A DNA stretch of 64,000 bases from Candidatus Eiseniibacteriota bacterium (GCA_963762255.1 CAVXKA010000003.1:736001-800000); one strand, 5' to 3'. Positions 1 to 63,314 are shown, counted from the stretch's first letter. The notes: a model not told the origin generated them from the letters alone. Translations and numbers: made by a program.

Positions 1-557
1 CTGGCGCCGGCGGTGTGGGTGAAGTTCGTGCTGTGGTAGATGCAAACGTACCAACTGTTGCCGTAACCAGAGCCACCCGCGTAGCAGAGTGCTTCCGCTT
101 CGCCCTGGAACACGCCGGCATACAGCGAGCCGACGCCGGTGATGGCGCAAGCAGGCTCACCGGCCTGGCCGGAGATCCAGCGGAAGTACGGGAGGAGGCT
201 GAACGTGTTGTCAACCCCGATCCACCCTTCCATCAAGGTGTGGAGTCCAGCGGCTTTGAAGGGGTTCAAGCCGGGTACAGAGCTGAAACTCGACCCGACG
301 CCCGTGTCGAACGTCCAGATCGAATCCGGCAGTGCTTCCCAGCGCGCCGAATCTGCCGCCCAGACGGTGCCACCAAAATAGGTGGTCGCGATCTGGGCTG
401 CTCCGAACACCCCCGTGTTGCTCGTCAAGTTCGCGTTGGGGGTCGTGTCCTCCAACATGAACTTCTGGAGGCCACCGGTCTGATCCACGGGCTTCGCGAG
501 AGCCGGGACCGCCAGGGCCACCACGAGCATCAGGGTGATGCTCAAGGCTTTTCTCAT
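1..557 (-). CDS. Secreted/surface protein, N-terminal part (runs off the left edge; missing from the ORF track)
   Basis: Manually translated open frame MRKALSITLMLVVALAVPALA-KPVDQ...EGWIGVDNT...GSGYGNSW. Has a Sec signal peptide and a GGAGG RBS upstream. Confidence 0.85.
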   Translation of the reverse strand, partial: MRKALSITLMLVVALAVPALAKPVDQTGGLQKFMLEDTTPNANLTSNTGVFGAAQIATTYFGGTVWAADSARWEALPDSIWTFDTGVGSSFSSVPGLNPFKAAGLHTLMEGWIGVDNTFSLLPYFRWISGQAGEPACAITGVGSLYAGVFQGEAEALCYAGGSGYGNSWYVCIYHSTNFTHTAGA

Positions 558-2619: not shown

Positions 2620-3880
2620 CGCCGCTCCACCTCGCGCCGCAGCTCGACCAGGGAAACGCCGCGGCGGCGCGCCAGCGCCGAGAGATCCTCGTACTCCGCG
2701 TGCGGGCGCTCCTCACCGTCGGGCAGGATGGCCACCTTGACTCGCACCTCCCCGTCCTCGAGCCGCACCGTATCGATCCGACGCGCGAGTTCCAGGCGCT
2801 CTTCGATCCGCCACCGGGCGCCGAGCGATGACGACTCCCGCACCACGCGCGCGGCGAATTCCTCGACCCTCTCCGGGGAGGAGAGCACCCGCAGAAGGAA
2901 ACCGGGGCGGCTCTTCTTCATGATCATCGGCGTGAGGGTCGCATCGAGGGCTCCCGCATCGAGGAGCGACCCGATCAGGTGCCCGGCGTCCTCGGGGGTG
3001 CAATCGTCGAGGGCGGCCTCGAGGACGGCTACCCGTACGCGGGGCACGGATCCGGTGAGGCCTTCCCCGACCACCAGACGTGCGAGGTTCGGCCGATGCG
3101 CGGGGTCCTTCCCCCCGCCCCGTAGCCGGTGCGCTCGGGTCGCAACGCGAACTCCGCCGGAACAGGCTCCGCGTGCACCGCCAGGAGCGCCGCGCCGGTG
3201 GGGGTGGTGAGTTCCCCCGCCCCCTCTTCGAAGATGCAGGAGCGCCCGTCGAGAAGATCGAGGGTGGCGGGAGCGGGAATGGGGAGCACCCCGTGCGCCG
3301 CGTGCGCGACTCCGCCCCCTACCGCCACCGGACCGTGGTAGAGACGGTCGAACCCCAACGCGCGCAGGCCGGCAGCGGCCCCGACAACGTCGGCGATGGC
3401 GTCCCACGAGCCCACCTCGTGGAACTCCACCGCATGCGGGGGGCGGCCGTGAAGGCGTCCCTCCACGTCGGCCAAGCGGGCGAACACGCGTCGTGCCCCA
3501 TCCCGCACCGTCGCGTCCAACGAGGCGCGGTCGAGGAGGCGGATGATCTCCGAGTAGGGACGGTGAACGGGGTGGTCGTGCCCGCCGATGGGGTGCCCGT
3601 GCGCTCCGCCAGGGTGGTCGTGCGCGTGGTCGTGGGCATGCGACGCGGCCTCCACCGGGCCGCCGGTCTCTTGAACGGGAGCGCCGTCCAGAAGCACGTC
3701 GACCTTGATCCCGCGAAGCCCGGCCCGGGTCACCTCGCTCGCGCGCAGGTCGACGCGGTCGCCCCCCACCGCGCGCACCGCGTCGCGCAGCGTATCCAGC
3801 GGGGCGCCGGCGTCCACAAGGGCGCCCAGAAACATATCTCCAGATATTCCAGAGGGAAGGTGAAAAATTCCAACCCGCAT
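2601..3880 (-). CDS. larC: Nickel-pincer cofactor Ni insertase LarC (one frameshift at ~3112 in a G run)
   Basis: SGISGDMFLGAL, His-rich insert, FHEVG, PIPAPAT, GELTTPTGAA, MKKSRPG, EYED. Split over ORFs 3029..4525 and 2601..3407. Confidence 0.9.
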
Positions 3881-8245: not shown

Positions 8246-8578
8246 CTAAGCGGAAGTGGACTGCGCGCCGGCGCCGGTGTGCCCGGCCGGGGCGTCGGAG
8301 TCCAGGGAAGCCACGCGATCCTTGAGCTCCTTGGACACCTTGAATACCGGCACCTTGCGCGGCGGAACGTGGACCGCGTCCCCGGTGCGCGGGTTACGCG
8401 CCGTGCGGGGCTTGCGGTCCTTTACCTTGAACGTGCCGAACCCGCGGATCTCAATGTGCTTACCCTGCACGAGCGCGCGCGACACCGCTTCCAAGAACTC
8501 ATCCACCGTGTCGGCGACGTCCTTCTTGGTGAGTCCGGTGCGCTGGGCGATTTCATCCACGAGATCTGCCTTGGTCAT
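8246..8578 (-). CDS. HU/IHF family DNA-binding protein
   Basis: MTKADLV, IRGFGTFKV, RTARNPRTG, VPVFK.SKELK. Confidence 0.95.
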   Translation of the reverse strand: MTKADLVDEIAQRTGLTKKDVADTVDEFLEAVSRALVQGKHIEIRGFGTFKVKDRKPRTARNPRTGDAVHVPPRKVPVFKVSKELKDRVASLDSDAPAGHTGAGAQSTSA

Positions 8579-8697
8579 TCGGAACCTCCTCTGCCCCGTT
8601 CCGGGGTCTACCCCGGCTTGGACGGTGACCGGACTGTCGCGGTGGATGGATGCACCGACGGCCGACCGACACCCCGTCCGCGGACGTATCTTGGCGG

Positions 8698-8815
8698 AAT
8701 CTACATGGTTACCCCATCCATGTCAAACGGGGTCACCGATCCCGGTCCAACCGGAGGGAAACGGTGGGCCGGAACATCCGGGCGCACTCTAGTGGAGGCT
8801 AACTTGGCCCGTCAA
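8698..8815 (-). promoter_or_regulatory. Tandem sigma70-like promoters for HU (TTGACA-N17-TAGATT at 8726-8698; TTGACG-N18-TAGAGT at 8815-8786)
   Basis: Both motifs read directly in the intergenic region. Confidence 0.6.
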
Positions 8816-8839
8816 CAAGGGTTCTGAGCACGGGCCCGT

Positions 8840-9793
8840 TCAGGGCCCGAAACGTGTCAGTTCGACCAGGACCCGGCCGGGTTGGACCCCTTCAAGGCGC
8901 AGCTCCGGCGCGAGCAGGTTCACCTGGGGCGTGAGCAGGTGCCGGCCCGCAGGAAGGTTGGTGGCGTCCACGAAGACCATGATCTGACTGGAGATGGCGG
9001 AATCCGGCTGATCGGTGGGAACGGACACGGTGACCGCCGCCGACTCGGGCTCGACACGCGCAACGAGATCGGAGGCCACGCCGAGCACGGCCACCACCAG
9101 CGGCGGGAGCCGCCGGCTTTCCACATGCACGAGGGCGATCTCCACGACCACGGAGTCGGGGGATACGCGCAACCCTCCTCGTTCCGCGGTCACGCGCAGC
9201 GAGCGGCGGGTGGAAGCCTGAAGTCGATCCAGCCAGAGCGGCTCCGTTCCGAGCGATTCGATGTCGCGCAGCAGAGCGGACGGACCACTCACCTGCACCT
9301 GAGCAGGTTCGACGCGCAGAGGGCTCTCGAGTCCAAGCCCGGATGGAAGATCCCCAACCAAGGCAAGGTGTACCGGCACCCGGCGCGTCATCAAGGTGTC
9401 GATGTCGATGGTGATCGAACGCGGGGCGAGGATCTCGGTCACTTCCGGTTGCACCTTGCCCGAGATCTGCAGATCGTCTGGAGCAAGCCTGTGCTGCACC
9501 CGCCCCGGCCGCGCCTCGCGCAGATCCAGTACCACACGCGCTCCGTGCATGCGGAGCTTCAAGAAGTCCATGCCCTTCCCGCGAACGCGCAGGTCGACGG
9601 ACTCGACAGGTTCGCCGGCGAATACCAAACCGGAGGGAAGATTGCGGACTTCCAGCGGTACGCGCAGACGCCATTCCCGTTCCGCCCCCAAGCGCGCGTA
9701 GGCGAAGACCGCCATCGCGAGGAGGAGCGCCAGGAACTTGGGACCCAGATTGCGGCCGAGATCGGCCAGAGACCGGATAGCCATGCCCGACAT
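8840..9793 (-). CDS. YbbR/CdaR-like domain protein
   Basis: N-terminal TM (KFLALLLAMAVF) followed by three YbbR-like repeats (P..V.V.GP). Confidence 0.75.
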   Translation of the reverse strand: MSGMAIRSLADLGRNLGPKFLALLLAMAVFAYARLGAEREWRLRVPLEVRNLPSGLVFAGEPVESVDLRVRGKGMDFLKLRMHGARVVLDLREARPGRVQHRLAPDDLQISGKVQPEVTEILAPRSITIDIDTLMTRRVPVHLALVGDLPSGLGLESPLRVEPAQVQVSGPSALLRDIESLGTEPLWLDRLQASTRRSLRVTAERGGLRVSPDSVVVEIALVHVESRRLPPLVVAVLGVASDLVARVEPESAAVTVSVPTDQPDSAISSQIMVFVDATNLPAGRHLLTPQVNLLAPELRLEGVQPGRVLVELTRFGP

Positions 9794-12701: not shown

Positions 12702-13541
12702 TTGAGTCATCGGCAGAGCGCCTGGCACGGGGCGGGGAGCATCCTCGGCTTTCCCCCCGCCATCAGCCAGCTCGTCCTCATCAACGTCATCGTCTTTCTG
12801 CTGCAGCAGCTCACGCCGCAGATCCAGGCGTGGTTCGCCCTGGTACCCCAGCAAGTGGTTACTCAGGGGAGGATTTGGCAACTCGTCTCCTACATGTTCC
12901 TGCATGGCGGATTCACCCACATCCTCTTCAACATGTTCGGGCTCGTCATCTTCGGCAGCGATCTCGAGCGCTACTGGGGCTCCCGCGACTTCCTCAAGTA
13001 CTACTTCATCACCGGGATCGGGGCGGGGCTGATTCACATCCTGGCCGCGTACGCATTTCCCGGGAATTTCCCGCCTTCCTACATCGTTCCCACGATCGGC
13101 GCCTCGGGGGCGATCTTCGGCATCCTGGTCGCCTACGCGATGGCGTTTCCCAACCGCCAGGTCCTGCTCTGGTTCGTGATCCCGGTCTCGGCGCGCACGA
13201 TGGTAATCCTGTTCGGGTTGATCGAGCTGGTCACCGCGTTTGAGCACCAAGGCGGAGACGGCGTGGCGCGGTTCGCCCACCTGGGCGGGATGCTGGTCGG
13301 GTATGTCTACTTGAAGCAGGAGACCCTGCTCCGGCGGGCGAAGCGGAACTTGCACGGCGCGCGCGCGCGCTCGGCGCGGCCTGCCGAGTCGCCCGAGGAC
13401 GACGCGGAACGCAAGGAGCAGATCGACCGGATCCTGGAGAAGATCAGCCGCGACGGGATGGGGTCGCTAAGTAAGGAAGAGCGACGGATCCTGGCGGAGT
13501 CCGCCGAGCGGGCGCGCCGCCAGCGCGGCGGCAGCGCCTGA
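12702..13541 (+). CDS. Rhomboid intramembrane serine protease with C-terminal DUF6576-like domain
   Basis: WQLVSYMFLH, HILFNM, GASG, AHLGG; tail IDRILEKIS..G..SLS.EE. Confidence 0.92.
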   Translation: MSHRQSAWHGAGSILGFPPAISQLVLINVIVFLLQQLTPQIQAWFALVPQQVVTQGRIWQLVSYMFLHGGFTHILFNMFGLVIFGSDLERYWGSRDFLKYYFITGIGAGLIHILAAYAFPGNFPPSYIVPTIGASGAIFGILVAYAMAFPNRQVLLWFVIPVSARTMVILFGLIELVTAFEHQGGDGVARFAHLGGMLVGYVYLKQETLLRRAKRNLHGARARSARPAESPEDDAERKEQIDRILEKISRDGMGSLSKEERRILAESAERARRQRGGSA

Positions 13542-13550
13542 CCGCGCCCT

Positions 13551-14528
13551 CTACGCGAGGCCCTTGGCCCGCTTCACCGCCTCGGTGAGCTTGGGCACGA
13601 TCTCCACCGCGTCCCCCACGATGCCGTAGTCCGCGACCTTGAAGACTGGGGCATCGGGATCCTTGTTCACGGCCACGATGCGCTTGGATGTGCGCATGCC
13701 GGCCAGGTGCTGGATCGCGCCCGAGATGCCGAACGCGAGGTAGAGGTTGGGGCTCACGGTCTTGCCGGTCTGACCGACCTGATGCTCGTGATCGATCCAC
13801 CCCGCGTCCACGACGGCACGGCTCGCACCCACCGCGGCGCCCATCGCCTTGGCGAGATCGAAGAGGGCGGGGAAGTTCTCCGGGCCCTTGAGACCGCGGC
13901 CACCTGCCACGATGACGTCGGCCTCGGCCACATCCACCATGCCGGCCTCGGAGGTCTTCATCTCCGTGCAGCGCGCGCGCAGCGCGACACCCGAGACATC
14001 CAGCGCGACGGTCTCGGCGGCGACCGGCGCAACGGCTGCCGGGAACACGTTCGGCCGCGAGGCGAGCACTGCGTGCGACGCAGGCGCGTCAAGCATCCAC
14101 TCCGCCTTGCCCGCGTACTGCGGGCGCGACACCACGAGGCGCCCGTTCTCGACCGCGGCCGCGGTGACGTCCGCCAGGTAGGTCCAGTCGAGGCGCGCGG
14201 CGAGGCGGGGCGCCAGATCCTTCCCCATCGCGGTGGCCGAGACCACGAGGATCTCCGCACCCGACTTTTCGATCGCCTGCGCAGCCGCGGCGGCGTAGCC
14301 CTCGGTGGAGTAGAGGGCGAGCGCCGAGGCGTCGGCCACGTAGACCGCGCTCGCGCCGTGCTCGGCGATGCGCGCAACGAGGCCGCTCACGCCCTCACCC
14401 GCCAGGACCGCCGCCATCGTCCCCCCCGATTCCTCGGCGAGCCGCTTGCCCAGCGACAGGGCTTCGAGAGAACTCTTCTTGATCGCACCGGCGCGCTGCT
14501 CGACGAACGTCAACACCTTGTGAGCCAT
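13551..14528 (-). CDS. etfA: Electron transfer flavoprotein alpha subunit
   Basis: [40 protein letters not shown]. Confidence 0.95.
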
Positions 14529-14545
14529 GGTCTCCCTCTCCTCCC

Positions 14546-15325
14546 CTAGAGCATCTTCTCGTCGTCGCGCAATGCGCGGACGAGTTCGGCCACCTGGGCG
14601 TCGGCATCGCCCTCGATCATCTTCATCTTGCGTTCCTGCGAGGGCTGGGTCACCGCGAGCACCTCGAAGCGCACCGCCGGAGCGGCGAGTCCCAGATCGC
14701 CCGCGCTCACGAGTTCGATCGGCTTCTTCTTGGCGGCCATGATCCCCTTGAGGCTCGGGTAGCGAGGCTCGTTCAAACCCTTCTGCGCCGCGATCACCGC
14801 GGGGAGCGAGAAGGCCACCTGCTCGAGACCGCCCTCCACCTCGCGCACCGCCTGACCGGACATGCCGTCGGCGGCGAACTCGAGGCCCACCACCACCGTC
14901 ACTTGAGGCCAATCGAGGCGCTCGGCCAGCATGGCCGGAATCGCCATCTGGTCGTCGTCCAGCGCCTGCTTCCCGCAGAAGATCACATCGGGCGATTCGC
15001 GCCTGACCAGCGCGGCCAGGGCCGCGGACACGGCGAGGGCGTCGGCCTGCGCGTAGACCGGATCCTTCAGCACCAACGCCTTGTCGGCCCCCAACGCCAG
15101 CGCGGCGCGCATGGCCTCCTCGATCTTCTCGCCGCCCACCGAGACCACCACCACCTCGCCCCCCTGCTTCTCCTTGAGTTGCAGGGCCGCTTCCATGGCG
15201 TACTGATCGTAGGCGTTGACTTCCCACTCCACGCCGGCCAGGTCGGCGGACTTGCCGTCGGCGGCGGGCTTGATCCGCGATTCCGTCGAGGGGACCTGCT
15301 TGAGACACACCACGATCTTCACCAC
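14546..15325 (-). CDS. etfB: Electron transfer flavoprotein beta subunit
   Basis: VCLKQVP, N.YD.YA.E.A, CGKQA.DDD, NEPRYPSLKGIMAAKKKP. Confidence 0.95.
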   Translation of the reverse strand: MVKIVVCLKQVPSTESRIKPAADGKSADLAGVEWEVNAYDQYAMEAALQLKEKQGGEVVVVSVGGEKIEEAMRAALALGADKALVLKDPVYAQADALAVSAALAALVRRESPDVIFCGKQALDDDQMAIPAMLAERLDWPQVTVVVGLEFAADGMSGQAVREVEGGLEQVAFSLPAVIAAQKGLNEPRYPSLKGIMAAKKKPIELVSAGDLGLAAPAVRFEVLAVTQPSQERKMKMIEGDADAQVAELVRALRDDEKML

Positions 15326-15499
15326 ATCCTCCTTCTGCTGAGGTCCGGCGGGGTTGGTCCGAGGCGAAAGGCGCCGCGAAGCCTACCAGCGGGCCGCAGG
15401 GAGGGTCAAACTCCGCGGCGGGTGGCGGCGCGACGCGCGTCCGGGCGAACGCGGGCGGCGTTGTTCCGGCGATCGCGCACGTGGTAGCCTCGCGCGCCC

Positions 15500-16219
15500 A
15501 TGGATCACGTACACGGCTCGACATCGCCGGGCGCCCCGCGCGCCTTCTACGAGGGCCTCGCGGGGCGCGCCCTCGATCGCTCCACCATCCGCGGCATCGC
15601 CTATCGCAACCTGGTCGTGGCGCGCCACGTCCCCGAGCGCGGGCAACGCGTGCTCGAAGTGGGCCCCGGCGAAGGATGGCTCACCCGAACGCTCGCCGGG
15701 CGCGGCCATCGCGTGATCGCAGTCGATCTCTCGCGACCCTGGCTCGCCGCGATCCGAAGCGACGCGGTCGCCGGCAAGGCGGCGGCCGAGATGACGCGCC
15801 TTCCCTTCGCCGACGCGAGCTTCGACGCCGTGGTCGCCGCCGAGGTGATCGAGCACATCCCCGACATGGCGGGCGCGCTCGCCGAAGCGGCGCGGGTGCT
15901 GGCGAGCGGCGGCCGGCTCGTGGTGACCGTGCCCTACCGCGAAACGCTTAAGTTCGCCCTCTGCGCCGACTGCGGGATCCGATACGAGGTGAACGGCCAC
16001 GTGCGCTCGTTCGACGAGGCGGATCTCGAAGCCGCACTCCAAGCCGCCGGGCTCGTGCCCGAGCGGCGCTTCATCGGACCCACCCGCTTCTCGCGCGAGA
16101 TCCTGCGGCGAGCCCCCATCGCTCCTCTGCTTCCGCTCCTCAACGCGCTCGACCGCGCGACCTATCGATCGCAACGTGTGAGCGACACGTGGATGCTCGC
16201 CACGGCCAGGCGTCCGTGA
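15500..16219 (+). CDS. Class I SAM-dependent methyltransferase
   Basis: VLEVGPGEG, LPFADASFD, EVIEHIPD; CxxC..NGH insert. Confidence 0.85.
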   Translation: MDHVHGSTSPGAPRAFYEGLAGRALDRSTIRGIAYRNLVVARHVPERGQRVLEVGPGEGWLTRTLAGRGHRVIAVDLSRPWLAAIRSDAVAGKAAAEMTRLPFADASFDAVVAAEVIEHIPDMAGALAEAARVLASGGRLVVTVPYRETLKFALCADCGIRYEVNGHVRSFDEADLEAALQAAGLVPERRFIGPTRFSREILRRAPIAPLLPLLNALDRATYRSQRVSDTWMLATARRP

Positions 16220-53996: not shown

Positions 53997-54028
53997 TCCG
54001 GGTTCGCGATTCCTGAGAGGCGGGCGAC

Positions 54029-54679
54029 CTAGTCGAGCGGGGTGAGCCCTTCGCGGACGGCGTACTTGGTGAGTTCGGCCACCGAGTGAAGCCCGAGCTT
54101 CTCCATGATCTGCCGCCTGTGCGACTCGACGGTCTTGGGGCTGACCGAGAGCTGGCCGGCGATTTCCTTGGTGGCGCGCCCCTCGGCAAGCAACTGAAGC
54201 ACCTCGCGCTCGCGCGGGCTCAAGAGCTGGAACGCCGAGTTCTGCTGGGGTGGCACGCGCACGGCAAAGTCCTGGGCCACCACATCGGTGATGGCGGCGC
54301 TGAGAAACACGTGCCCCTCCATCGCGGACTGGATCGCCCTCACGACCTCCGGAAACGCGCTGTCCTTGAGCAGGTAGCCGCTCGCACCGGCCCGCAGTGT
54401 TTCCGCCACGAAACGCCGGTCGGCGTGCATCGACAGAATGAGGACGCGGGTCTGCGGGACCTCGGCGGCGATTCGGCGAGTGGCTTCGACGCCGTTCATG
54501 CCCGGCATGGAGATGTCGAGCAGCACGATGTCGGGTCGCAGCTCGTTGGAGAGCCGCAGTGCTTCCAGCCCGTCGCCGGCCTCGCCGACAACGGTGAAGC
54601 CGGGGGAACGCTGGAGCAGTGCGCGCAGTCCGTCGCGGAAGAGCTGGTGATCATCGGCGATCAGCACACGGACGGTCAC
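54029..54679 (-). CDS. NarL/LuxR-family response regulator
   Basis: ADDH, LDISMP, GYLLK, LSPREREVL, KTVESHR..IM.KL. Confidence 0.95.
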   Translation of the reverse strand: MTVRVLIADDHQLFRDGLRALLQRSPGFTVVGEAGDGLEALRLSNELRPDIVLLDISMPGMNGVEATRRIAAEVPQTRVLILSMHADRRFVAETLRAGASGYLLKDSAFPEVVRAIQSAMEGHVFLSAAITDVVAQDFAVRVPPQQNSAFQLLSPREREVLQLLAEGRATKEIAGQLSVSPKTVESHRRQIMEKLGLHSVAELTKYAVREGLTPLD

Positions 54680-55908
54680 GACAGGCCACCTTCCTCTTGA
54701 GCGAGCGGCACGTTGAGGGTGATGGTCGCCCCCGCCCCGGGGGCCGATCGCACATCGAGCCGGCCGCCCAGATGTCGCAGGCGCTCCCGGATGCTGAACA
54801 GGCCGAAGGTCCCCGCCTCCGCGCTCGCAGCCGCCGCCTCCGCCCGCTCGGGGTCGAACCCCGCGCCGTCGTCCGTGACCTGCACTTGAAGCATCGTTGC
54901 CTCCCGACGCAGCAGGACCTGCACGCGCTTCGGGCGCCCGTGCTTGATCGCGTTGGTAAGCAGTTCGTGCGCCGACTTGAAGAGCATCACCCGCGTCGCC
55001 TGGGGTACTTGCGGCACATCGCGCGCGGCGGTCACTTCCACCTGGACGCCATGCTTGGCCGTGAATTGCTCCCCCATCCATTCGAGCGCGGGCCCCAGGC
55101 CGAGTTCGTAGAGCACCGGCGGGCTCAGCTCTCCGGTCAGCGTGCGCGTGTAGCGGATGGACTGGTCCACAAGGCCCAGGATCTCGCGCAGGCTGGACTC
55201 GAAGCCGCAGAAGACGGCGTCGCCCGCAAACTGCGCCAGGCGCAGCTTCACGAAGGCCAGAGCCTGCCCCAAGTGGTCGTGCAGATCGGCGGCAATAGCG
55301 CGCCGTTCGCGTTCTTCCGCAAGGGCGAGTTCCGTCGCGAGACGGCGCAATTGCTCCCGGTGTCGATCGATCTCCGCGCAGGCGCGGCGGTGCTCGGCGA
55401 TCTCCGCTTGCAGCGTCGCGTTGGTGGCTTGCAGCTCCGCGGTGCGCTCCGCAACCTGGCGCTCGAGCTGGTCGTGCGCCCGCTGCGCGGCCTGATCGTC
55501 GAGTTGGTGCTGGAGGTACATGCGGAGCATCTCAGCCAGCGAATCGATGAGGTCGCGCTCTTCGCTGAGGAATGGACCCTCGGCCGCCGGTGGGCGCGCC
55601 TCCAGGTAGCAGATCTCGAGGCTCCCCTCCGATGGCGCCGTTGCGCCGGAGACGCGGGCGGTGAAGCGCGCCCGCTGAGTCCATGGTGTCTCTCGGAAGT
55701 TCGCGCTCGCGTACTCCCCGCCCAGAAGCCGGAGGCGGGCGGCGGCGACTTCCGGGAACTGCCAGGCCGCGGGAAGAAACTCCACGATCTCGCGCATCAA
55801 GCCTTCGACCGGCCGCTGAGTGTCTTGCAGCAGTCGTGCCGTGCGGTGGAGCGCGGTGAGTTCTTTGACGCGCTCGCCGAGGCTGTGGCGGATCGAATCC
55901 TGGGTCAT
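54676..55908 (-). CDS. Cytoplasmic HisKA_3 sensor histidine kinase with N-terminal GAF-like domain
   Basis: ERRAIAADLHD..GQ, ELLTNAIKH, DDGAGF, FGL.SIRER; no TM segment. Confidence 0.92.
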   Translation of the reverse strand: MTQDSIRHSLGERVKELTALHRTARLLQDTQRPVEGLMREIVEFLPAAWQFPEVAAARLRLLGGEYASANFRETPWTQRARFTARVSGATAPSEGSLEICYLEARPPAAEGPFLSEERDLIDSLAEMLRMYLQHQLDDQAAQRAHDQLERQVAERTAELQATNATLQAEIAEHRRACAEIDRHREQLRRLATELALAEERERRAIAADLHDHLGQALAFVKLRLAQFAGDAVFCGFESSLREILGLVDQSIRYTRTLTGELSPPVLYELGLGPALEWMGEQFTAKHGVQVEVTAARDVPQVPQATRVMLFKSAHELLTNAIKHGRPKRVQVLLRREATMLQVQVTDDGAGFDPERAEAAAASAEAGTFGLFSIRERLRHLGGRLDVRSAPGAGATITLNVPLAQEEGGLS

Positions 55909-56000
55909 GCGTGCGTTCCTGCGCGAGGGCGCCGGACAGGCCGACTGGATCGGGCCGCATAGTCTACGCCCGTCGTCCGGACGGGCCCCAGGGGAAAGGA

Positions 56001-56076
56001 TGGAGGCGCCAGGCAGATTCGAACTGCCGCATAACGGTTTTGCAGACCGTCCCCTTAGCCACTTGGGTATGGCGCC
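56001..56076 (-). tRNA. tRNA-Cys(GCA) with encoded CCA
   Basis: GGCGCCA acceptor stem, anticodon loop CTGCAAA, T-arm GGCAG-TTCGAAT-CTGCC, U73 discriminator. Confidence 0.97.
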
Positions 56077-56103
56077 TCTTCAAAGCGGCAGAAGAGGTTA
56101 GCA
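56042..56103. repeat. att direct repeat copy 1 (62 bp: 5' half of tRNA-Cys plus 27 nt upstream)
   Basis: Identical to 60092..60153. Confidence 0.95.
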
Positions 56104-56123
56104 GATACCCTTCACTGAGACAA
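56095..56123 (-). promoter_or_regulatory. Hybrid tRNA promoter TTGTCT-N17-TAACCT (with TGn extended -10)
   Basis: The -10 lies inside the att repeat and the -35 lies in the integrase 3' end. Confidence 0.6.
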
Positions 56124-56580
56124 CACCAGGGTGTGACCACTTTTGTGACCACCTTCCTGGCCACGGAAGCCCACCCTGAGTGCCTCATTGAACACAGCAC
56201 CATCCGAAAGCTGACCGTACCTCTGGGTGACTTGGATGGAGGAGTGACCTAGGAGCTTCTGAAGAGCTTCCAGACTTCCCCCCATTTCCAGCCACCTACA
56301 GGCAAAGGTGTGACGAAGCTGGTGGAAGTGCCACGTCACTCCGGCGGCCTTCTCGATCCGATCGACGAAGCTGCACGGGGTCTTGCAGCGCATGGGCAGG
56401 ACGAACACCGACGTCGTCCTCGCCAGTCGCTCCCGCAAGAGCGCCGCAGCTTCCGGGACGAGCGGCACGCGCCGGACCTTGCCCGACTTCGTGTGATAGA
56501 CCACCAGGTGCGGACGCGGCAGGTCCCTGACGTGCCGCCACTGCAGCCGGTGGAGTTCCCCCCGCCGGAGACTGGTGAGG
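56112..56580 (-). pseudogene. Tyrosine integrase, catalytic domain only (5'-truncated)
   Basis: TSLRRGEL..L.W, HTKSGK, FHQLRHTFA, LLGHSS, TQRY. No recognisable N-terminal domains; in-frame stop at ~56655. Confidence 0.85.
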
Positions 56581-56782
56581 GGGCCACTTCGGGCACTCGC
56601 GGCATGATCGATGAGCGGAAGACTGCCGAAGAGGGCAACATGACCACCATGCGTTCAGCTTTCGCGGAGGCCCACCCAATGGCTCACAAGTTGGAGCTGG
56701 ACATGCTCTTCGCGAGCAGGTGATTCTGCCTTGACGTTCGTCATGTAACGCTCCGTAACACCCCATATGGAGGACCTGCACG

Positions 56783-57148
56783 GTGACTGGATCGATGCCT
56801 CACATTCAGGGATTCGCGCCCTCCGTGCCGCTGCTCGCCGGTACCTCGTCTCTGGAAACCGAGGATCGGGCCTCGGAGACCATCGCCGGGCGATGCGACG
56901 GCGAGTACCAGGTCTCGTTTGATTTCGCGACACCGAACGCCGGTTCGAGCGTGGAGCTGAGCGCCAACGGCGCGGCGCCCAAGATGGTCAGCCTGCCCGC
57001 GACCGGAGAATGGCAGCTGTACCAGCGCGTCGAAGGCGGCAGATTATCGTTCAAATACGGGGTGAACACCCTTTCGCTCCGCTGCGTCACCAAGGTCGGC
57101 GAAGACATGGGCAACCTGGGCGAGATCCTCCTGGAGCGGACGAAATAG
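56783..57148 (+). pseudogene. CBM6/CBM35-like carbohydrate-binding module fragment
   Basis: G.YQV...AT, LPATG.WQ.Y, G.NTL.L pattern; no credible N-terminus. Confidence 0.5.
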
Positions 57149-57173
57149 GGAATCAAGCTGCGAAGCACGAACC

Positions 57174-57203
57174 CGTAGGGGCGACGCATGCGTCGCCCCT
57201 ACG
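57174..57203. repeat. Perfect 30-bp palindrome, GTAG-type REP-like
   Basis: CGTAGGGGCGACGCA-TGCGTCGCCCCTACG between convergent genes. Confidence 0.8.
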
Positions 57204-57258
57204 ATTCATTGCGTCAAAATTTCGAATCAAACCATCTTGACCCGACCTGATTCATCTC

Positions 57259-58197
57259 CTACAGCCGGTAATACTCCCGGAACCATTGAATGGTCTTCTT
57301 GAGGCCATCTTCGAAGGACGTTTTCGGCGCCCAGCCGAGGATCCTGCGTGCGCGATCGCTGTTGGAACACATGTGCCAGATCTCGGTCGGCCGGTAGGGC
57401 AGCGCCCCGAGCTGGATGTCGCTCTTGCTGCCGGTCAGTTCCTTGATCGTCAGGATCAGCCGCTTGATCGGGATCTCCTCGCCGTTGCCGAGGTTCATGA
57501 TGTTGCCGATCGCCTCGTCCTTCTTGACCGCCAGCATGATGCCGTCGGCCAGGTCCTCGACGTAGTTGAACTCCCGCGTCTGCTCGCCCTTGGTGGCCTT
57601 GAGCGGCCGGTTCTTGAGGCAGGTCTCGATGACCTCGCCGATGATCGCCTTCGAGCTCTGATACGGGCCGTAGGCGTTGAACGGCCGGATGATGACGATC
57701 GGCTTCTTCATCATCGACATCTTCATCTGGCAGTAGAGCTCGCCGCCGTACTTGCCGATCGAATAGGGCGAGATCGGCTGCGGCAGCATGGTCTCGACGA
57801 AGGGCACCTCGGTCTGGTAGCCGTAGACCTCGGAGGTGGAGATGTAGACGAACTTCTCGTAATCCTGGTACGCCTCGAGGATGTTGGCGGTGCCCTTGCA
57901 GTTGACGTCGAGGGCCTCGGACACGCTCATGAAGCTGTCGCCGACGTGGTTGTACGCGGCCATGTGCACGACGATGTCCGGCTTGAACACCGCGATCTGG
58001 CGGAGCGAATCCTGGTTGCGGATGTCGGCCTCGATCACCTCCACGTCGTCCCAGATGTCGCGGATGCGCTCATTGTCGATCAGGCTCTTGTACTTGGTGA
58101 TGATCCCGACCCGCGCGCCCTCCTTCACCAGCCGGCGCGTCACGTTGGCAGGAATGAACCCCGAACCGCCGGTCACCAGCACTTTCTTGTTCTTCAT
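57259..58197 (-). CDS. NAD-dependent NDP-sugar epimerase/dehydratase
   Basis: VTGGSGFI, STSEVYG, YSIGK, RPFN.YGP, TREFNYVED. Confidence 0.92.
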   Translation of the reverse strand: MKNKKVLVTGGSGFIPANVTRRLVKEGARVGIITKYKSLIDNERIRDIWDDVEVIEADIRNQDSLRQIAVFKPDIVVHMAAYNHVGDSFMSVSEALDVNCKGTANILEAYQDYEKFVYISTSEVYGYQTEVPFVETMLPQPISPYSIGKYGGELYCQMKMSMMKKPIVIIRPFNAYGPYQSSKAIIGEVIETCLKNRPLKATKGEQTREFNYVEDLADGIMLAVKKDEAIGNIMNLGNGEEIPIKRLILTIKELTGSKSDIQLGALPYRPTEIWHMCSNSDRARRILGWAPKTSFEDGLKKTIQWFREYYRL

Positions 58198-58931
58198 TCG
58201 GTGTCCCCCATTGTGCCCGAGAGAATGGTGTAAAACCCCTCCAGGCGCGCCTCGGTGTCGATCTTCTCTTCCTTGGTATTGACCGTCAGGTGCTCGCCCT
58301 CGTGGCGGAAGGCCCAAAACCGGCCCATGGCGATCACCTTGTCATACAGATCCACGATCGATTCCGCTTCGTCGACCAGGTCGAGGACCGACTTTTCCAC
58401 GACCATGAAACCTATGTTCATCCACTCATCCAGCAGCGGCTTTTCCCGGAACGAGGACACCTGCCCGCGGTCGTTGAACTTGAGAATGCCGAAGGACGAA
58501 TGCAGCCGGCGCACGGTCATCGTCAGCAGGCTGTCGCTCCGCTCGTGGAACTCCAGGAGGTCATGCAGGTTGACGTCCGCGATGGCGTCGCCGAACGAGA
58601 GAATGAAGCGGTCGCCGGTCAGGATTCTCCGGGCATTGAGGACCCGCTTCAGCATGGACGCGTCCTCACCGGCGTCATCGTATTCAATCAGGTACGGCAG
58701 ATTCTTCCCCTCGAAATAATCCCGGATCATGAATCCCCGGTATCCGAGGCAGAGGCAGAAACGGTTGAAACCCCAGACGGCGAAAATATCCAGGATGTGC
58801 TTGATCATCGGCTGGTCGCGCAGGTAGACCAGCGGCTTGGGAATCTCGTCGGTGATCGGCTGAAGCCGGACGCCGCGGCCGCCGCAGAGGATCACCACCT
58901 GGGTGTTGCGCGCCTTCTCCACGTCCTTCAT
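58194..58931 (-). CDS. Sugar-phosphate nucleotidyltransferase (glucose-1-P cytidylyltransferase-like)
   Basis: VILCGGRG.RL...T..IPKPL, CLGY.G..I.DYF, GD..ADV.L, F.EKP. Confidence 0.88.
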   Translation of the reverse strand: MKDVEKARNTQVVILCGGRGVRLQPITDEIPKPLVYLRDQPMIKHILDIFAVWGFNRFCLCLGYRGFMIRDYFEGKNLPYLIEYDDAGEDASMLKRVLNARRILTGDRFILSFGDAIADVNLHDLLEFHERSDSLLTMTVRRLHSSFGILKFNDRGQVSSFREKPLLDEWMNIGFMVVEKSVLDLVDEAESIVDLYDKVIAMGRFWAFRHEGEHLTVNTKEEKIDTEARLEGFYTILSGTMGDTE

Positions 58932-59614
58932 GCGGGCCGCCGGTACTTGAACATGGCGGACAGGGCCTGGAAACCGTCGCGCATCTTGATCTTCTTGCCC
59001 TGCTGGCTGTTCCGCGGCCGGAAGCGGATCGGCAGTTCCAGGTACTTCAACTGCGGCCGCCCTCGCAACAGCTTGAAGGCGATCTCGATGTCGAGGTCGA
59101 AACGGTCGGACTCGAGTTCCTCGATGGCGATCAAGTCCCGGCGGAACACCTTGTAGCAGGTTTCCACGTCCGACAGCCGGCGGCCCAGCAACACGCCGGC
59201 GACGCGCGAGAGGAACACGTTGCCGTAGTAGTAGAGTAAACTGAAATGCTGGTCTTGCTGGAGAAACCGCGAGCCGAAGGCCACGTCCGCCTCGCCGCTC
59301 TCCACCGCCCTGACCAGCGGCACCAAGTCTTGCGGATCCAGTTCCACGTCGGCATCCTGGAACGCGATGATCTCACCTTTGGCGTGCCGCAACCCGAGCC
59401 TGACGCCATGGCCCTTGCCGATATTGACGTCGTTGTACACGACCTGGATCGCGTGGGTCCCGGCCAGCTTCCGCAGCAGGGCCCGGGTGCCGTCGGTGGA
59501 GCCGTTCTCCACCACGACGATCTGTTTGTCGAGGGGAAGCTCACCGACAGCCTCGATCACCTGCCGGATGGTGGCTTCCTCGTTATAGGCTGTTATGATG
59601 ATGGTGGTCAGCAT
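58928..59614 (-). CDS. GT2 glycosyltransferase (DPM1-like)
   Basis: AYNEE.TI, GSTDGT, N.GKG, QDAD.E, FGSRF, D.ETCYK. Confidence 0.92.
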   Translation of the reverse strand: MLTTIIITAYNEEATIRQVIEAVGELPLDKQIVVVENGSTDGTRALLRKLAGTHAIQVVYNDVNIGKGHGVRLGLRHAKGEIIAFQDADVELDPQDLVPLVRAVESGEADVAFGSRFLQQDQHFSLLYYYGNVFLSRVAGVLLGRRLSDVETCYKVFRRDLIAIEELESDRFDLDIEIAFKLLRGRPQLKYLELPIRFRPRNSQQGKKIKMRDGFQALSAMFKYRRPA

Positions 59615-59721
59615 GTCTCATCCCTATCTTATGGTAACAGTTCACGGCATCGAGCGGAAGGGGGCGTTCCGTGCGGAGTGCGCGTACCAATGCAAAGGCG
59701 TCGTGACTGAGACATCCGCCA

Positions 59722-59880
59722 GCGAGCGGCGCGCGCGGTCGAGCAGCTCCCGCGTGGCTAACCGCAGGAGGTGGATTGCGCAGTCGGCCTTCTCGTGGCC
59801 GCAGGCCGCGGCGACCGACACGCACTCGCGCAGCACGGTCGGCAGCTTCAGCGCTTTGAGGTGGTGCTCCACCCATTCCC
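59722..59880 (-). pseudogene. IS21-family IstB ATPase N-terminal remnant
   Basis: EHHLKALKLPT.LRE...A..C......L.RL...EL.DR.RR, after which similarity is lost. Confidence 0.65.
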
Positions 59881-60091
59881 CCTTGACCCCGTCCGGCCTC
59901 GGCACCTGCGCCGGTTTGCGTCTATGAATTCCATGGAAATGGTAGGAAGCCGCCGGAAACGATAATAGGATGCTGTCCGGCACGAGCGGGCGTACCCAAT
60001 CTCACCACCCAGGGTTGCCTGCGAAACACCCTTGTGAGAAGGGCTTGGACCGTGGACCTCGCATGACTTAGAAAACCTCGATTTCGCCTTC

Positions 60092-60153
60092 GCAGACCGT
60101 CCCCTTAGCCACTTGGGTATGGCGCCTCTTCAAAGCGGCAGAAGAGGTTAGCA
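60092..60153. repeat. att direct repeat copy 2 (displaced tRNA-Cys 5' fragment)
   Basis: Identical to 56042..56103. Identity ends in the anticodon loop. Confidence 0.95.
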
Positions 60154-60174
60154 CAACCCAAGGAGCCGACTCAA
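60145..60174 (-). promoter_or_regulatory. Presumed native tRNA-Cys promoter TTGAGT-N18-TAACCT
   Basis: Read on the minus strand, pointing into the island. Confidence 0.55.
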
Positions 60175-60343
60175 CCGGCCCCACCGGCTCGATGCCGGCC
60201 CCTCCCGCTGCGGCCGAGGCGATCCGGCCCGCCCGACGCGGCGCCGATCGAGCAATTCGCTCAAGTGATCCCTGGTCTTCTCATCCGCGCAGTACAGACT
60301 GCCCCCCAGCCTGGACCATGTAGCAATTATTCTGATTTGGTGA

Positions 60344-60372
60344 TTGACGACTCATTTAGTCCTTGATACCTT
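60344..60372 (+). promoter_or_regulatory. sigma70-like promoter TTGACG-N17-TACCTT
   Basis: Lies in an AT-rich patch about 230 bp upstream of the next CDS. Confidence 0.55.
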
Positions 60373-60604
60373 TCCCGCAGTCGCTTCGGTCGGCTATTAG
60401 TCGATTCGAGTTCGCCATGATCTCGGTGGCGCAGCGGCTCTCGCGCTCTGTCGGGCATCCTCCGACGGGGGTCGGTTCTCAAGTACCTCCATACCGGGGT
60501 TGGAGAAACGCGCTGCACCCGGGCGTTGGCCTTCTCCACCCGCGCTCAGGTCCCGGTGCCATCTGAACCTATGCGGCAATCGGTGACTAGAAAGGTCCGT
60601 TTTC

Positions 60605-61303
60605 ATGCGAATGGCGTCCCGTAGAGAGCTCCGGCTTGTATCGGTAACGCGGCTCGCGCTTCCCATCTTCCTGGCGGTCATGCTGGGGATGACGGGTTCA
60701 GCGGCGGCGCAGCTCGTGAATCCCGCCTTCGACTCCGGCCCGGCAGGACCGGTGGGCAATTTCGGCACCGTTGTCGGCCCTCCTTTCCAGGGCGGCCTGT
60801 GGGGTGCCGAGGACGCTTCCATCGACAACGCCACCATTTGCGGCACCGGGCCGCTCAGCAGCCCGTACATGCTGAGCCTCGGGACGGGGGGTGGTTCCTA
60901 TAGCCAGGCTTGGCAGGCGGTCGACGTTTCGGCCGGGCCTCCCGCCGTTGTGAACCTCCGCGCCCGGGCCAACACCTGCGCCTCGGCGCCGGGGGTGACG
61001 GTGGGACTGGACATCAGAACCTTCAACAACGCGAACGGCTGGCCCAGCCACACCATGGTAGTGAGCACCTCCATCCAGCTCGACGCCGATGTGAACACCT
61101 GGGAGCAGGTCCTTCTGGATTGCATCCCGATCCCTTCCGACACCGAGTGGATTCTGGCGCAGGTATACCTGGTCAACTCCACGGCGGGCGGCAATCCAGC
61201 TTACTTCGACGACGTGCTGCTCGAGTTCGATCATTGCATCGTCCCGGCCGCTCCCACCACATGGGGCGCGGTCAAGGCTCTCTACGGGACTCCGTCCGAG
61301 TAG
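60605..61303 (+). CDS. Secreted jelly-roll/CBM-like protein with C-terminal TTWGAVKALY motif
   Basis: Signal peptide, LVNPAFD, W.Q, YFDDV.L, tail VPAAPTTWGAVKALYG. Confidence 0.8.
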   Translation: MRMASRRELRLVSVTRLALPIFLAVMLGMTGSAAAQLVNPAFDSGPAGPVGNFGTVVGPPFQGGLWGAEDASIDNATICGTGPLSSPYMLSLGTGGGSYSQAWQAVDVSAGPPAVVNLRARANTCASAPGVTVGLDIRTFNNANGWPSHTMVVSTSIQLDADVNTWEQVLLDCIPIPSDTEWILAQVYLVNSTAGGNPAYFDDVLLEFDHCIVPAAPTTWGAVKALYGTPSE

Positions 61304-61332
61304 ATACTTCCCTATGCCTTGACGAGTCCAAT

Positions 61333-61367
61333 TGCCGCCGGTCCGAGGGATCCTCGGGCCGGCGGCA
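61333..61367 (+). terminator. 16-bp GC stem-loop after the CDS (no U-tract)
   Basis: TGCCGCCGGTCCGAGG-GAT-CCTCGGGCCGGCGGCA. Confidence 0.45.
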
Positions 61368-61556
61368 TCGCGTTTCCAGCCGTTGACGAGGAAGTCATGT
61401 CGCGATGCCCTGAGCATCCGGCGCCGGGGATAACGCTGCATTCCGCAAGGAGTGAGGTCGTGATAGGTTCCTCCTGGTTCCTGTGAGGAACACGCGTTCA
61501 ACCGGATTGAGGCTGCGAATCCGGCGCACAACTTCTGTCGTTGTCTTGAGTCTGGA

Positions 61557-63314
61557 ATGTACCGACACCTGACCATCCTTCTCCTCCTGCATCTGACCGT
61601 TGGAGCTTCCCCGTCTCGGGGTTCCGCGGCGCAAGACGAGCCCGAAGCGCGCGCGCGACCGGACTCGGCTGAGGTCGAGCGAAGCGGCCAGGAACCCGTC
61701 CTGGAGCGGACCGATCTGAAGTTCCTCGCGTACGCGGGGAAGCACGTCCGGAAGATCCGGGTCATGAATCTCGATGTATTCGGCGCGTCGGTGGACGACA
61801 CCACCCTGGTGACGAAGTCACGGCTGGGGGGATTCCTCAACCACCTGAACTTCCGGACCCGCGAGACGACCGTTCGCCAGACCCTCCTTTTCGGGGAGGG
61901 GGACGCCATCGATCCCTTCCGGCTGGCGGACAGCGAGCGCATCCTTCGTAACCTGGCGTTCATCGCAGATGCCCGGGTCTTCGTGGTGCAGATCCCCGGA
62001 AGCGGCGATTCGGTCGACGTGGGGGTCATCGTGAAGGAAACGTGGACCCTCAAACTCTCAGAGACCCTGAGAGAGGGAAACCGCCTGAAAGTCAGCCTCG
62101 CCGAGCAGAACCTCCTCGGGCTGGGGCACCAGGTCTACGTGGCGGGCACGCTGGACCCGAAAGCCACCCCCCGCTTGGGATTCGATGCGAGCTACTCCAT
62201 GCAGAACATCCGTGGCTCGTTCATCACCGGAAGCCTGGAGTACGCGAAACTGTCCGGCAAGGAAACTGCGGCTCTCACAATGTCCCGCGAGCTGGTCTCT
62301 CCCGTCCTCCGATACGCCGGAGGCCTGGATCTGATACGGACGTCGATCTCAGAACCGGATTCACAGCCGTCCGTGGCCAGCAATAGTTCGGAGTTGGTCG
62401 ATATCTGGGCGGGAAGGCAGATCTATCAGCGGCGCAGTCAGAAAGAAACCGGGACCCCCCGCATCCTGTTCGTTTCGGGCCGGGTCCGGCATCTCAAGTT
62501 CACCAGACGCCCGCCGGTCACGCCGTCCACCTACTATCAGTATCAGAACATGGATCACGTTCTGGGAAGCCTCACCTACATCCACAACTGGCATTACCGC
62601 ACGAATCTCCTGTTCAACTTCGGACGGACCGAGGATGTCCCCTCTGGTGTCCTCGCCCGCGTCACGTACGGATTGGCCGATGAGGAGTTCAGTCAGCGTA
62701 CGTATGCCGCCGTTACGCTGGCGGGCGGGAAGAAGATCGAGAGTCTCGGTTTTGGAGTCGGGGAATTGCGGATCGGCGGGTACCCCAACCGCGGAATGCT
62801 CGAGCAGGGAGTGATCCGCTTGCGGACGCTCTATTTCAGCAATCTCCTGCACACGGGAGGGTTCCGTCTCCGCCAGTTCGTCAGAGCGGCATACATCACC
62901 GGCATCAATCGCTTGGCGGACGACGGCATCGACTTCAACGGCGATGAAGGCATCCGGGGCGTGGTCTACGACGGCAGTGTGACCGGAACCAAACGTCTTC
63001 AGCTCGACCTTGAAACCGTCGCGTTCACCCCTTGGAAGGTGGGGGGAGTCACCCTTGCCTCCTTCACCTTCGCGGAAGCGGATTTCATCGGTTCCGGACG
63101 GAGGAGCGTCTTCACGCAAGACTGCTATTCGGGGCTGGGGCTGGGAGTCCGATTGCACAAGGAGGGCTTCGGCGTCGGACCGGTGCAGCTGCGCTTCGCC
63201 TGGTACCCGAGACTCCCGGTCCGTCATGCCGGGTACTCATTCACCGTGTTCGCGGGGGAACGATTCCCAACGATCGGGCTCCTGGGGAGTGAGCCGGAGA
63301 TCGTGGAGTACTAG
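61557..63314 (+). CDS. POTRA-containing outer-membrane protein (Omp85-like)
   Basis: TRE..VR..LLF.EGD..DP..L..SER.LR.L.FI, E.NLLGLGH, GLG.GVR. Confidence 0.75.
   Translation: MYRHLTILLLLHLTVGASPSRGSAAQDEPEARARPDSAEVERSGQEPVLERTDLKFLAYAGKHVRKIRVMNLDVFGASVDDTTLVTKSRLGGFLNHLNFRTRETTVRQTLLFGEGDAIDPFRLADSERILRNLAFIADARVFVVQIPGSGDSVDVGVIVKETWTLKLSETLREGNRLKVSLAEQNLLGLGHQVYVAGTLDPKATPRLGFDASYSMQNIRGSFITGSLEYAKLSGKETAALTMSRELVSPVLRYAGGLDLIRTSISEPDSQPSVASNSSELVDIWAGRQIYQRRSQKETGTPRILFVSGRVRHLKFTRRPPVTPSTYYQYQNMDHVLGSLTYIHNWHYRTNLLFNFGRTEDVPSGVLARVTYGLADEEFSQRTYAAVTLAGGKKIESLGFGVGELRIGGYPNRGMLEQGVIRLRTLYFSNLLHTGGFRLRQFVRAAYITGINRLADDGIDFNGDEGIRGVVYDGSVTGTKRLQLDLETVAFTPWKVGGVTLASFTFAEADFIGSGRRSVFTQDCYSGLGLGVRLHKEGFGVGPVQLRFAWYPRLPVRHAGYSFTVFAGERFPTIGLLGSEPEIVEY

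Follow-up and report, generated by a model that had tools for sequence, protein, structure and literature searches.

A decayed integrase element at the single tRNA-Cys gene of a Candidatus Eisenbacteria genome, with probable replacement of the 5' half and promoter of its target

Islands integrated in tRNA genes (tDNA islands) usually restore the 3' part of the tRNA, and the host promoter stays in charge of the rebuilt gene. In the classical form that uses the anticodon loop, a tyrosine integrase recombines the element with the gene by way of an attachment (att) site, the crossover falls in the loop, and a regenerated tRNA and a displaced tRNA fragment mark the two ends. Here we describe a related locus in a 64,000-nt stretch of DNA from Candidatus Eiseniibacteriota bacterium, an uncultured organism from soil (GCA_963762255.1, CAVXKA010000003.1:736001-800000; hereafter the window, to which coordinates refer unless a contig is named). 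In it, an island with the remnant of a tyrosine integrase gene lies directly upstream of the tRNA-Cys(GCA) gene. It resembles the classical islands in its regenerated tRNA and displaced fragment, in the position of the integrase remnant beside an att site and, probably, in a crossover in the anticodon loop, and differs from them in that the 5' part and promoter region of the target, rather than its 3' part, have probably been replaced.

This polarity has precedents. In the passage of PMC6563490 that deals with it, recombination with the 5'-distal part of a tRNA gene is called "considerably less frequent" than that with the 3'-distal part, with citation of Zhao and Williams (2002) and of four archaeal studies. 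As cited there, the case of Zhao and Williams resembles ours in several respects: it is the 5'-distal part of the tRNA gene that takes part in recombination with a tyrosine-integrase element, the displaced 5' fragment lies upstream of the regenerated gene, and the element must supply the upstream part. Our locus differs from it in belonging to Candidatus Eisenbacteria, in having tRNA-Cys as its target, and in being a decayed remnant fixed in the sole tRNA-Cys gene. The archaeal viruses and plasmids cited in the same passage have the same minority polarity and use other integrase families. Further, the configuration filter of Islander rejects only 5' fragments lying downstream or 3' fragments lying upstream of the gene (PMC4383910), so that an upstream 5' fragment such as that of the window is an accepted configuration. 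The reversed-polarity class is thus already in print as well as in the Islander search rules, and the original prediction, made from the sequence of this stretch, overstated the novelty of a 5'-restoring case. A further parallel is the tRNA-dependent lysogeny of actinobacteriophages, in which a separate phage tRNA gene complements a host tRNA that is left unrebuilt (Guerrero-Bustamante and Hatfull, 2024; PMC10865867). There too an essential host tRNA depends on element-borne sequence. In the window, by contrast, the junction itself restores the tRNA, and no separate tRNA is found in the island, which places the locus outside that group.

Our preferred explanation, to which we assign a probability of roughly 0.85, is that an old and now immobile tyrosine-integrase element inserted in the single tRNA-Cys(GCA) gene, at its anticodon loop, and brought with it a promoter and the 5' half of the tRNA. 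The two repeats described below would be the junctions of this old element. Its own attachment site (attP), just downstream of the integrase gene, would have been without the usual tRNA 3' part; instead, two arm-type repeats would have come first, then a promoter of the sigma-70 type and, last, tRNA positions 1 to approximately 35-38. Strand exchange in the loop would then have joined the promoter and 5' half of the element to the 3' half of the host, giving the hybrid gene at 56001-56076, and would have stranded the host promoter and 5' half 4 kb upstream beside the native flank, pointing into a set of co-oriented sugar-modification genes. The later loss of the N-terminal half of the integrase and of any excisionase would have left the element fixed.

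The tRNA-Cys locus and its junctions

A repeat search recovers a directly repeated segment of 65 nt, the copies of which are 98% identical (56039-56103 and 60089-60153) and whose sole mismatch, at 56041/60091, leaves an exact match of 62 nt, in full agreement with the 62-bp repeat claimed in the original prediction (Table 1). This match comprises tRNA positions 1-35, position p of the tRNA being coordinate 56077-p, and the 27 nt upstream of them (TGCTAACCTCTTCTGCCGCTTTGAAGA in tRNA sense). Position 36 is A in the gene and G in the distal copy, and positions 37-38 are identical again, so that the shared tRNA segment extends over positions 1-38 if one mismatch is allowed. An exact match of 62 nt is far beyond chance; the next-best direct repeats in the interval 54000-62000 are of 20-25 nt at 76-85%. 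When the tRNA and its 27 upstream nt are used as a 103-nt query, two places are found in the whole of the window's genome (G000; 4,136,756 bp in 3 contigs), both of them in the window. ARAGORN calls an intact tRNA at one of these and no tRNA at the distal copy. Hence, the tRNA-derived repeat bounds the island with one edge in the anticodon stem-loop, an intact tRNA is regenerated at one junction and, in tRNA sense, the 5' fragment stands upstream of that gene with the island in between.

The number of tRNA-Cys genes, a point raised with the original prediction, is one among the 52 tRNAs that ARAGORN finds in the whole genome. The same run reports, outside the window, a tRNA with a four-letter anticodon (gatt) to which it assigns no identity (G000:C1:1314354), as well as a tRNA-SeC at C3:93249. 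Neither the island nor the rest of the window has a tRNA call beyond tRNA-Cys.

The island between the repeats measures 3,988 bp (56104-60091), or 4,050 bp from repeat to repeat, and has a GC content of 0.575-0.65 against 0.68-0.70 in the left flank. Next to the intact tRNA it bears the C-terminal part of a tyrosine integrase gene on the tRNA's strand, reading towards the tRNA and ending 9 nt short of the repeat. Its open reading frame (ORF) occupies 56112-56504, with homology extending to 56582. Relative to the 339-aa integrase of the relative G003 it shows 59% identity over residues ~200-336 and retains the HxxR, H and Y of the catalytic site (HQLRHT, LGH and RY in the alignment). The N-terminal ~180 residues are missing, and the region of the first catalytic Arg reads SLRRGE versus GLRWGE. 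This is, therefore, the remnant of a tyrosine recombinase gene and not a working gene. The remaining island genes are listed in Table 1; for the 113-aa ORF at the far end, a possible likeness to IstB of IS21 was dropped, as Pfam gives no match.

Table 1. Features of the tRNA-Cys locus in the window, ordered by position
Feature	Coordinates	Strand	Basis
Intact tRNA-Cys(GCA), sole tRNA in the window	56001-56076	-	ARAGORN
Integrase-proximal repeat copy (att junction): 27 nt upstream and tRNA positions 1-35	56042-56103		Repeat search
Extended -10-like TGCTAACCT (TAACCT at 56100-56095) inside the repeat, followed by discriminator-like CTTCTGCC	56095-56103	-	Sequence
-35-like TTGTCT in the island, beyond the repeat, with 17 nt between it and TAACCT	56118-56123	-	Sequence, pattern test
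Tyrosine integrase remnant, C-terminal ~160 of ~340 residues	56112-56600	-	PF00589, E 3.5e-18
Two tandem 12-nt repeats, AAGGTGGTCACA / AAAGTGGTCACA, period 12	56132-56155	-	Sequence
121-aa ORF with weak carbohydrate-binding-module similarity (CBM35_2 just over cutoff, CBM6 under cutoff)	56783-57148	+	Pfam
NAD-dependent sugar epimerase/dehydratase, cargo	57259-58200	-	PF16363, 2.5e-54; PF01370, 6.3e-48
Sugar-phosphate nucleotidyltransferase, cargo	58194-58931	-	PF00483, 6.4e-21
Family-2 glycosyltransferase, cargo	58928-59614	-	PF00535, 5.3e-30
113-aa ORF at the far end of the element, function unknown	59642-59983	-	No Pfam match
Distal repeat copy: putative displaced host -10 region and tRNA positions 1-35	60092-60153		Repeat search
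Native -35-like TTGAGT, 18 nt upstream of the distal TAACCT	60169-60174	-	Upstream regions compared
Native upstream flank of tRNA-Cys, including a 232-aa ORF at 60605-61303 (+)	60154-61367		Homologue beside tRNA-Cys in G007:C28

Polarity, age and crossover point of the insertion

That the intact gene sits at the integrase end and the fragment at the ancestral position is best seen from the flanks. Among the relatives, all of them metagenome-assembled genomes of Candidatus Eisenbacteria, one of the same family and another genus (contig G007:C28) has an intact tRNA-Cys with its upstream region directly beside a homologue of window positions 60373-61367, matching at 78.7% in DNA and, for the 232-aa ORF, at 73% in amino acids. 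In G004, the region upstream of tRNA-Cys matches the distal flank for 26 nt past the repeat. Taken together, these flanks imply that the stranded 5' fragment occupies the ancestral position of the gene, with the island lying between it and the working gene. In the window's own genus, G001 carries the distal junction (contig C260, 84% identity to window 60011-60138), made up of the island end (60011-60091 conserved) and a 5' half with a decayed -10. As G001 was assembled independently, this common junction indicates that the insertion predates the split of the two species and is no product of assembly. Accordingly, an assembly artefact, a danger named with the original prediction, or a segmental duplication unrelated to site-specific recombination is hardly credible: the genome is taken as metagenome-assembled by analogy with its relatives and public reads cover neither junction, but beside the junction in G001, an integrase remnant and cargo of lower GC content lie between the repeats, and the same architecture occurs in at least three other genomes.

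The G007 genome has two full-length tRNA-Cys genes (G007:C3:313000-323417 at 8671-9014, and the G007:C28 stretch at 8309-8514), which have ~200 nt in common at 88.7%, namely the tRNA with 27 nt on its upstream side and, on its downstream side, ~100 nt that include a hairpin. The C28 copy occupies the native flank; that on C3 is closely preceded by tandem repeats and a decayed integrase C-terminus. Each is ~5 kb or less from a contig end. On the other side of the window's tRNA-Cys, starting 92 nt past its 3' end and on the same strand, lie genes for a histidine kinase (HisKA_3/HATPase_c) and a LuxR-type response regulator (54029-55908). In G004 and G007 this pair is not beside tRNA-Cys, which implies that the downstream flank was rearranged in one lineage.

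The reversed polarity is borne out by elements of related integrases in which both repeats lie on one contig. In G003, a full-length integrase (339 aa), preceded by a small helix-turn-helix gene that by eye resembles an excisionase, ends ~100 nt short of an intact, same-strand tRNA-Arg(CCT). A repeat of 76 nt at 97%, made up of 37 nt upstream and tRNA positions 1-39 and ending at the exact 3' edge of the anticodon loop, recurs 13.5 kb away. Further contents of this element are a DUF3987 protein, an NHL-repeat gene and an IS66 insertion; within it (C14:2182000-2201999, 13373-16031), a second, 184-aa integrase fragment (PF00589) is adjoined, on the opposite strand, by an IS66 transposase and an IS66 Orf2-like gene. 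G038 has a 5'-restoring element at tRNA-Arg-CCT, with a repeat of 41 nt at 100% that covers positions 1-40 and copies 11.7 kb apart; the orientation of its cargo is not readable from raw ORF lists in this high-GC DNA. In G207 the target is tRNA-Ser-CGA, with a 63-nt repeat at 92% and a distance of 12 kb, and the element stands next to an older integrase in a tandem array of an integrase, a promoter with tRNA positions 1-41, 12 kb of further DNA, a second integrase and the intact gene. The junction of the tRNA-Ser-CGA 5' half with the left end of the element in G207:C17 recurs, in whole or in part, at C2:30559-30649, C14:22221-22289 and C6:165750-165794, which points to several copies of related elements in that genome. 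Thus, three other genomes have elements with a repeated 5' half, two of them of 12-13.5 kb with full-length integrases, and complete elements of related integrases show the same configuration as the window. A 3'-restoring element also occurs: in G206, the integrase of a 40-kb element at tRNA-Met lies distal to the gene and is directed towards the 3' fragment that was displaced.

The repeat edges of these elements also bear on where strands were exchanged. The edge on the promoter side varies in its distance from the tRNA (27 nt in G000, 37 nt in G003, ~22 nt in G207 and 1 nt in G038), and the opposite edge is found each time within the anticodon loop or just beyond it (positions 35-41). In G009, G012 and G068, the 3' fragments of tRNA-Cys that adjoin integrases begin at positions 30-32. 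Moreover, the anticodon stem-loop offers the inverted symmetry used by the core sites of tyrosine recombinases. With one edge fixed in the loop and the other variable, strand exchange in the anticodon loop is the best reading, and it implies that the integrase-proximal repeat copy and everything upstream of it came from the element. We infer both the exact crossover point and this origin of the proximal copy from such comparisons.

The first of two further readings to be weighed against this evidence is that the element inserted upstream of the tRNA, with a crossover near 56103/60153, so that the working gene would still have the host's -10 and 5' half, with a new -35 alone, and the presence of tRNA sequence in attP would be no more than homology. 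It gains something from the identity of the two copies, which hides the point of exchange within the 62 nt, and from the reach of the repeat beyond the tRNA on the promoter side, by 27 nt in G000 and 37 nt in G003. We regard it as very unlikely, because the constant edge is the one expected at the site of exchange and it is the loop edge, not the promoter-side edge, that is constant; the starts of the integrase-adjacent 3' fragments and the symmetry of the stem-loop likewise favor the loop. The second is that attP carried a whole tRNA-Cys, so that two full copies were present at first and the 3' half of the distal one was deleted later. The two full-length genes of G007, one at the native flank and the other downstream of an integrase remnant, would fit such a history, but their placement on separate contigs leaves it conjectural that they bound a single element. 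In addition, the distal copy in the window ends inside the anticodon loop, with the junction beyond it common to G001, and G003, G038 and G207 share this loop boundary, at which random deletion would not end time after time. We consider this history, too, highly improbable.

Several observations weigh against insertion in the loop of tRNA-Cys with replacement of its 5' half, or against parts of that reading. First, a complete empty site with both window flanks was not found in any of the relatives examined; in G004 the gene for the downstream histidine kinase and tRNA-Cys are on separate contigs, and in G007 a distance of 24 kb separates that gene from a tRNA-Cys. The empty site envisaged in the original prediction, with 56103 joined to 60154, was accordingly recovered as to its upstream half, in the tRNA-Cys of G007:C28 joined to the native flank, and the downstream neighbor differs in all the relatives examined. 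Second, among public reads a single soil-metagenome DNA run matched, with 0.07 of the sampled words, and no RNA run was among the matches; five short contigs from this DNA run, two of them identical to 58120-58345 and 59886-60036, cover neither junction. Third, when longer flanks were searched for repeats at seven loci with an integrase followed by a tRNA, five lacked a repeat of the 5' half, namely G144 and G090 (39 kb searched in each) and G114, G098 and G077 (19, 9 and 6.6 kb to the contig end); adjacency alone is, therefore, no proof of polarity in each relative. G160 gave just a 28-nt repeat of the tRNA 3' end, on the other side of the tRNA, and the seventh locus, with its 5'-half repeat, is that of G038. 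Fourth, as the two repeat copies in the window are identical, the element-derived copy is not readable from the sequence of the locus, and the assignment of origin rests on the crossover position in the family as a whole. Finally, a generic sigma-70 scan of 55850-60350 gave no promoter-like site, which speaks against a promoter of the E. coli type, and the TAACCT proposed below as a -10 matches TATAAT at 3 of 6 positions.

At the G160 tRNA-Cys (C276:4000-11536), the integrase lies head-to-tail upstream, and the 28-nt repeat of the 3' end (1263-1290 / 3026-3053) lies 1.76 kb downstream, which suggests a second insertion, of classical polarity, on the other side of the same gene.

The promoter of the tRNA-Cys gene

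Upstream of the intact gene, TTGTCTCAGTGA at 56123-56112 on the minus strand contains both the TTGTCT hexamer (56123-56118) and the TGA stop of the integrase ORF (56114-56112). Other tRNA genes of the same genome show the same build, with TTGnnn, a spacer of 16-18 nt, often TGn, TAnnnT and then a CTTCCGCC-like discriminator. The pattern TTGnnn-16..18-TAnnnT at the right distance is found upstream of 7 of the 52 tRNAs, including tRNA-Cys, against 0.14% of 20,000 random 60-mers, and with TGn in 5 of the 52 (0.03% of the random 60-mers). It is, therefore, plausible that TTGTCT-17-TGCTAACCT serves as the tRNA-Cys promoter. The generic scan of 55850-60350 also covered terminators, and its single terminator-like site is on the plus strand, at 58244. 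If the loop crossover is right, the only tRNA-Cys of this bacterium is most likely transcribed from a promoter with an element-derived -35 and, by origin, an element-derived -10.

At the distal copy, the -35 is conserved as TTGAGG, TTGAGC or TTGAAC at the tRNA-Cys loci of the relatives. This copy amounts to a complete native-looking promoter that now faces four minus-strand island genes, and transcription of the cargo from it is possible.

Between the integrase and the promoter lie the two tandem 12-nt repeats. A pair of 9-12-nt repeats with a spacing of 11-12 nt occupies the same place in 22 of the 25 distinct same-strand loci of the integrase family, as compared to a chance expectation of ~3 in 25 if spacings of 9-25 are taken as equally likely. 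These repeats are candidates for arm-type integrase-binding sites of the former attP. In most of the same-strand loci inspected, a TTG-type hexamer could be seen by eye between the tandem repeats and the tRNA. The window's integrase ORF runs ~17 codons past the stop of its homologues, across the tandem repeats and the -35, and the second decayed integrase of G007 (on C3) stops ~70 nt before its -35, which together imply that the overlap of coding sequence and promoter is particular to the window copy. Thus, the original prediction was right that TTGTCT lies within the end of the integrase ORF; this is an accident of the present copy, in which the ORF overruns its usual stop, rather than a feature of the family. 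Its further suggestion, that the need for this promoter explains why the integrase end has persisted, is weak, as such a need would keep ~50 nt and not a remnant of ~490 nt.

The 17-mer TGCTAACCTCTTCTGCC, allowing at most one mismatch, has seven sites among the 206 genomes of the class; they fall in five genomes, each of which belongs to the window's own family: G003:C14:2201699-2201715, G004:C1:2054911-2054927, G007:C3:321756-321772, G007:C29:1087335-1087351, G002:C651:10959-10975 and, in the window, 56087-56103 and 60137-60153. It precedes tRNA-Cys, tRNA-Arg-CCT (in G003) and tRNA-Ser-CGA (in G007:C29), three frequent targets of the integrase family. It could be either a shared host consensus or a set of element-borne promoters left behind.

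The integrase family and the lability of its polarity

With the G003 integrase protein as query, homologues at E<=1e-20 were found in 72 of the 206 genomes of the class. For the layout of their loci we considered the 30 best as well as 54 distinct integrases, the latter obtained by pooling these 30 with 61 of the 80 loci of a second set and taking out duplicates; integrases of <240 aa, those of <33% identity and one with an unmatched C-terminus were dropped. An intact same-strand tRNA <=150 nt from the integrase stop is the most frequent arrangement (14 of the 30 best loci and 19 of the 54 distinct integrases), and in a few more loci such a tRNA lies at 350-730 nt (3/30; 4/54). Other integrases adjoin a same-strand 3' tRNA fragment (4/30; 5/54), an intact opposite-strand tRNA at <=150 nt (2/30; 6/54) or further off (0/30; 1/54), an opposite-strand tRNA fragment (0/30; 2/54) or a same-strand 5' tRNA fragment (0/30; 1/54). 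No tRNA was found by the integrase at 7/30 and 14/54, respectively, and the locus is cut by a contig end in 0/30 and 2/54. The expectation that the homologues sit 5' of tRNAs consequently holds often, and not consistently.

In a quick maximum-likelihood tree of 55 rows, with an arbitrary root and the window row filling 43% of the columns, the window's integrase fragment groups with those of G003, G009 and G012 at a Shimodaira-Hasegawa-like approximate likelihood ratio (SH-aLRT) support of 99. Of these, G003 is the 5'-restoring element at tRNA-Arg-CCT, and the integrases of G009 and G012 adjoin a displaced tRNA-Cys 3' half in the same orientation. The closest integrase clade, as delineated by this tree, holds both 5'-restoring elements and a 3' layout at tRNA-Cys, which is a new detail. 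The grouping implies that one recombinase lineage, acting on the same anticodon loop, may have either half of the tRNA in its attP. Across the tree, at least nine changes among three layouts are required.

These observations lead us to a tentative and, in our estimate, rather unlikely extension: that this Eisenbacteria integrase family is labile in the polarity with which it repairs tRNAs and that the promoters of its target tRNAs have perhaps been serially overwritten by elements. In tandem arrays such as that of G207, a tRNA built by one element would be the target of the next, and a stranded "host" promoter may itself be the relic of an older element. Serial overwriting would explain why a single -10/discriminator module of 17-24 nt precedes three commonly targeted tRNAs, namely tRNA-Cys (G000, G004, G007 and G002), tRNA-Arg-CCT (G003) and tRNA-Ser-CGA (G007:C29), and is found only in the window's bacterial family. 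A corollary, if this were true, is that a stranded stable-RNA promoter would be reused for the co-oriented cargo of the element.

In a broader sense, the finding does not overturn current understanding; it provides a clean bacterial example, from an uncultured phylum, of a class that has rarely been documented. An essential tRNA gene, present in a single copy, appears to have had its front half and promoter taken over by an element that later decayed in place, which would leave the expression of a host tRNA on foreign DNA and the original promoter pointing into cargo genes. For tools that map islands, the head-to-tail adjacency of integrase and tRNA offers a good marker of the 5'-restoring polarity. 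There is, finally, a hint that the half of the tRNA that is carried can switch within one integrase lineage, which bears on how the use of integration sites evolves.

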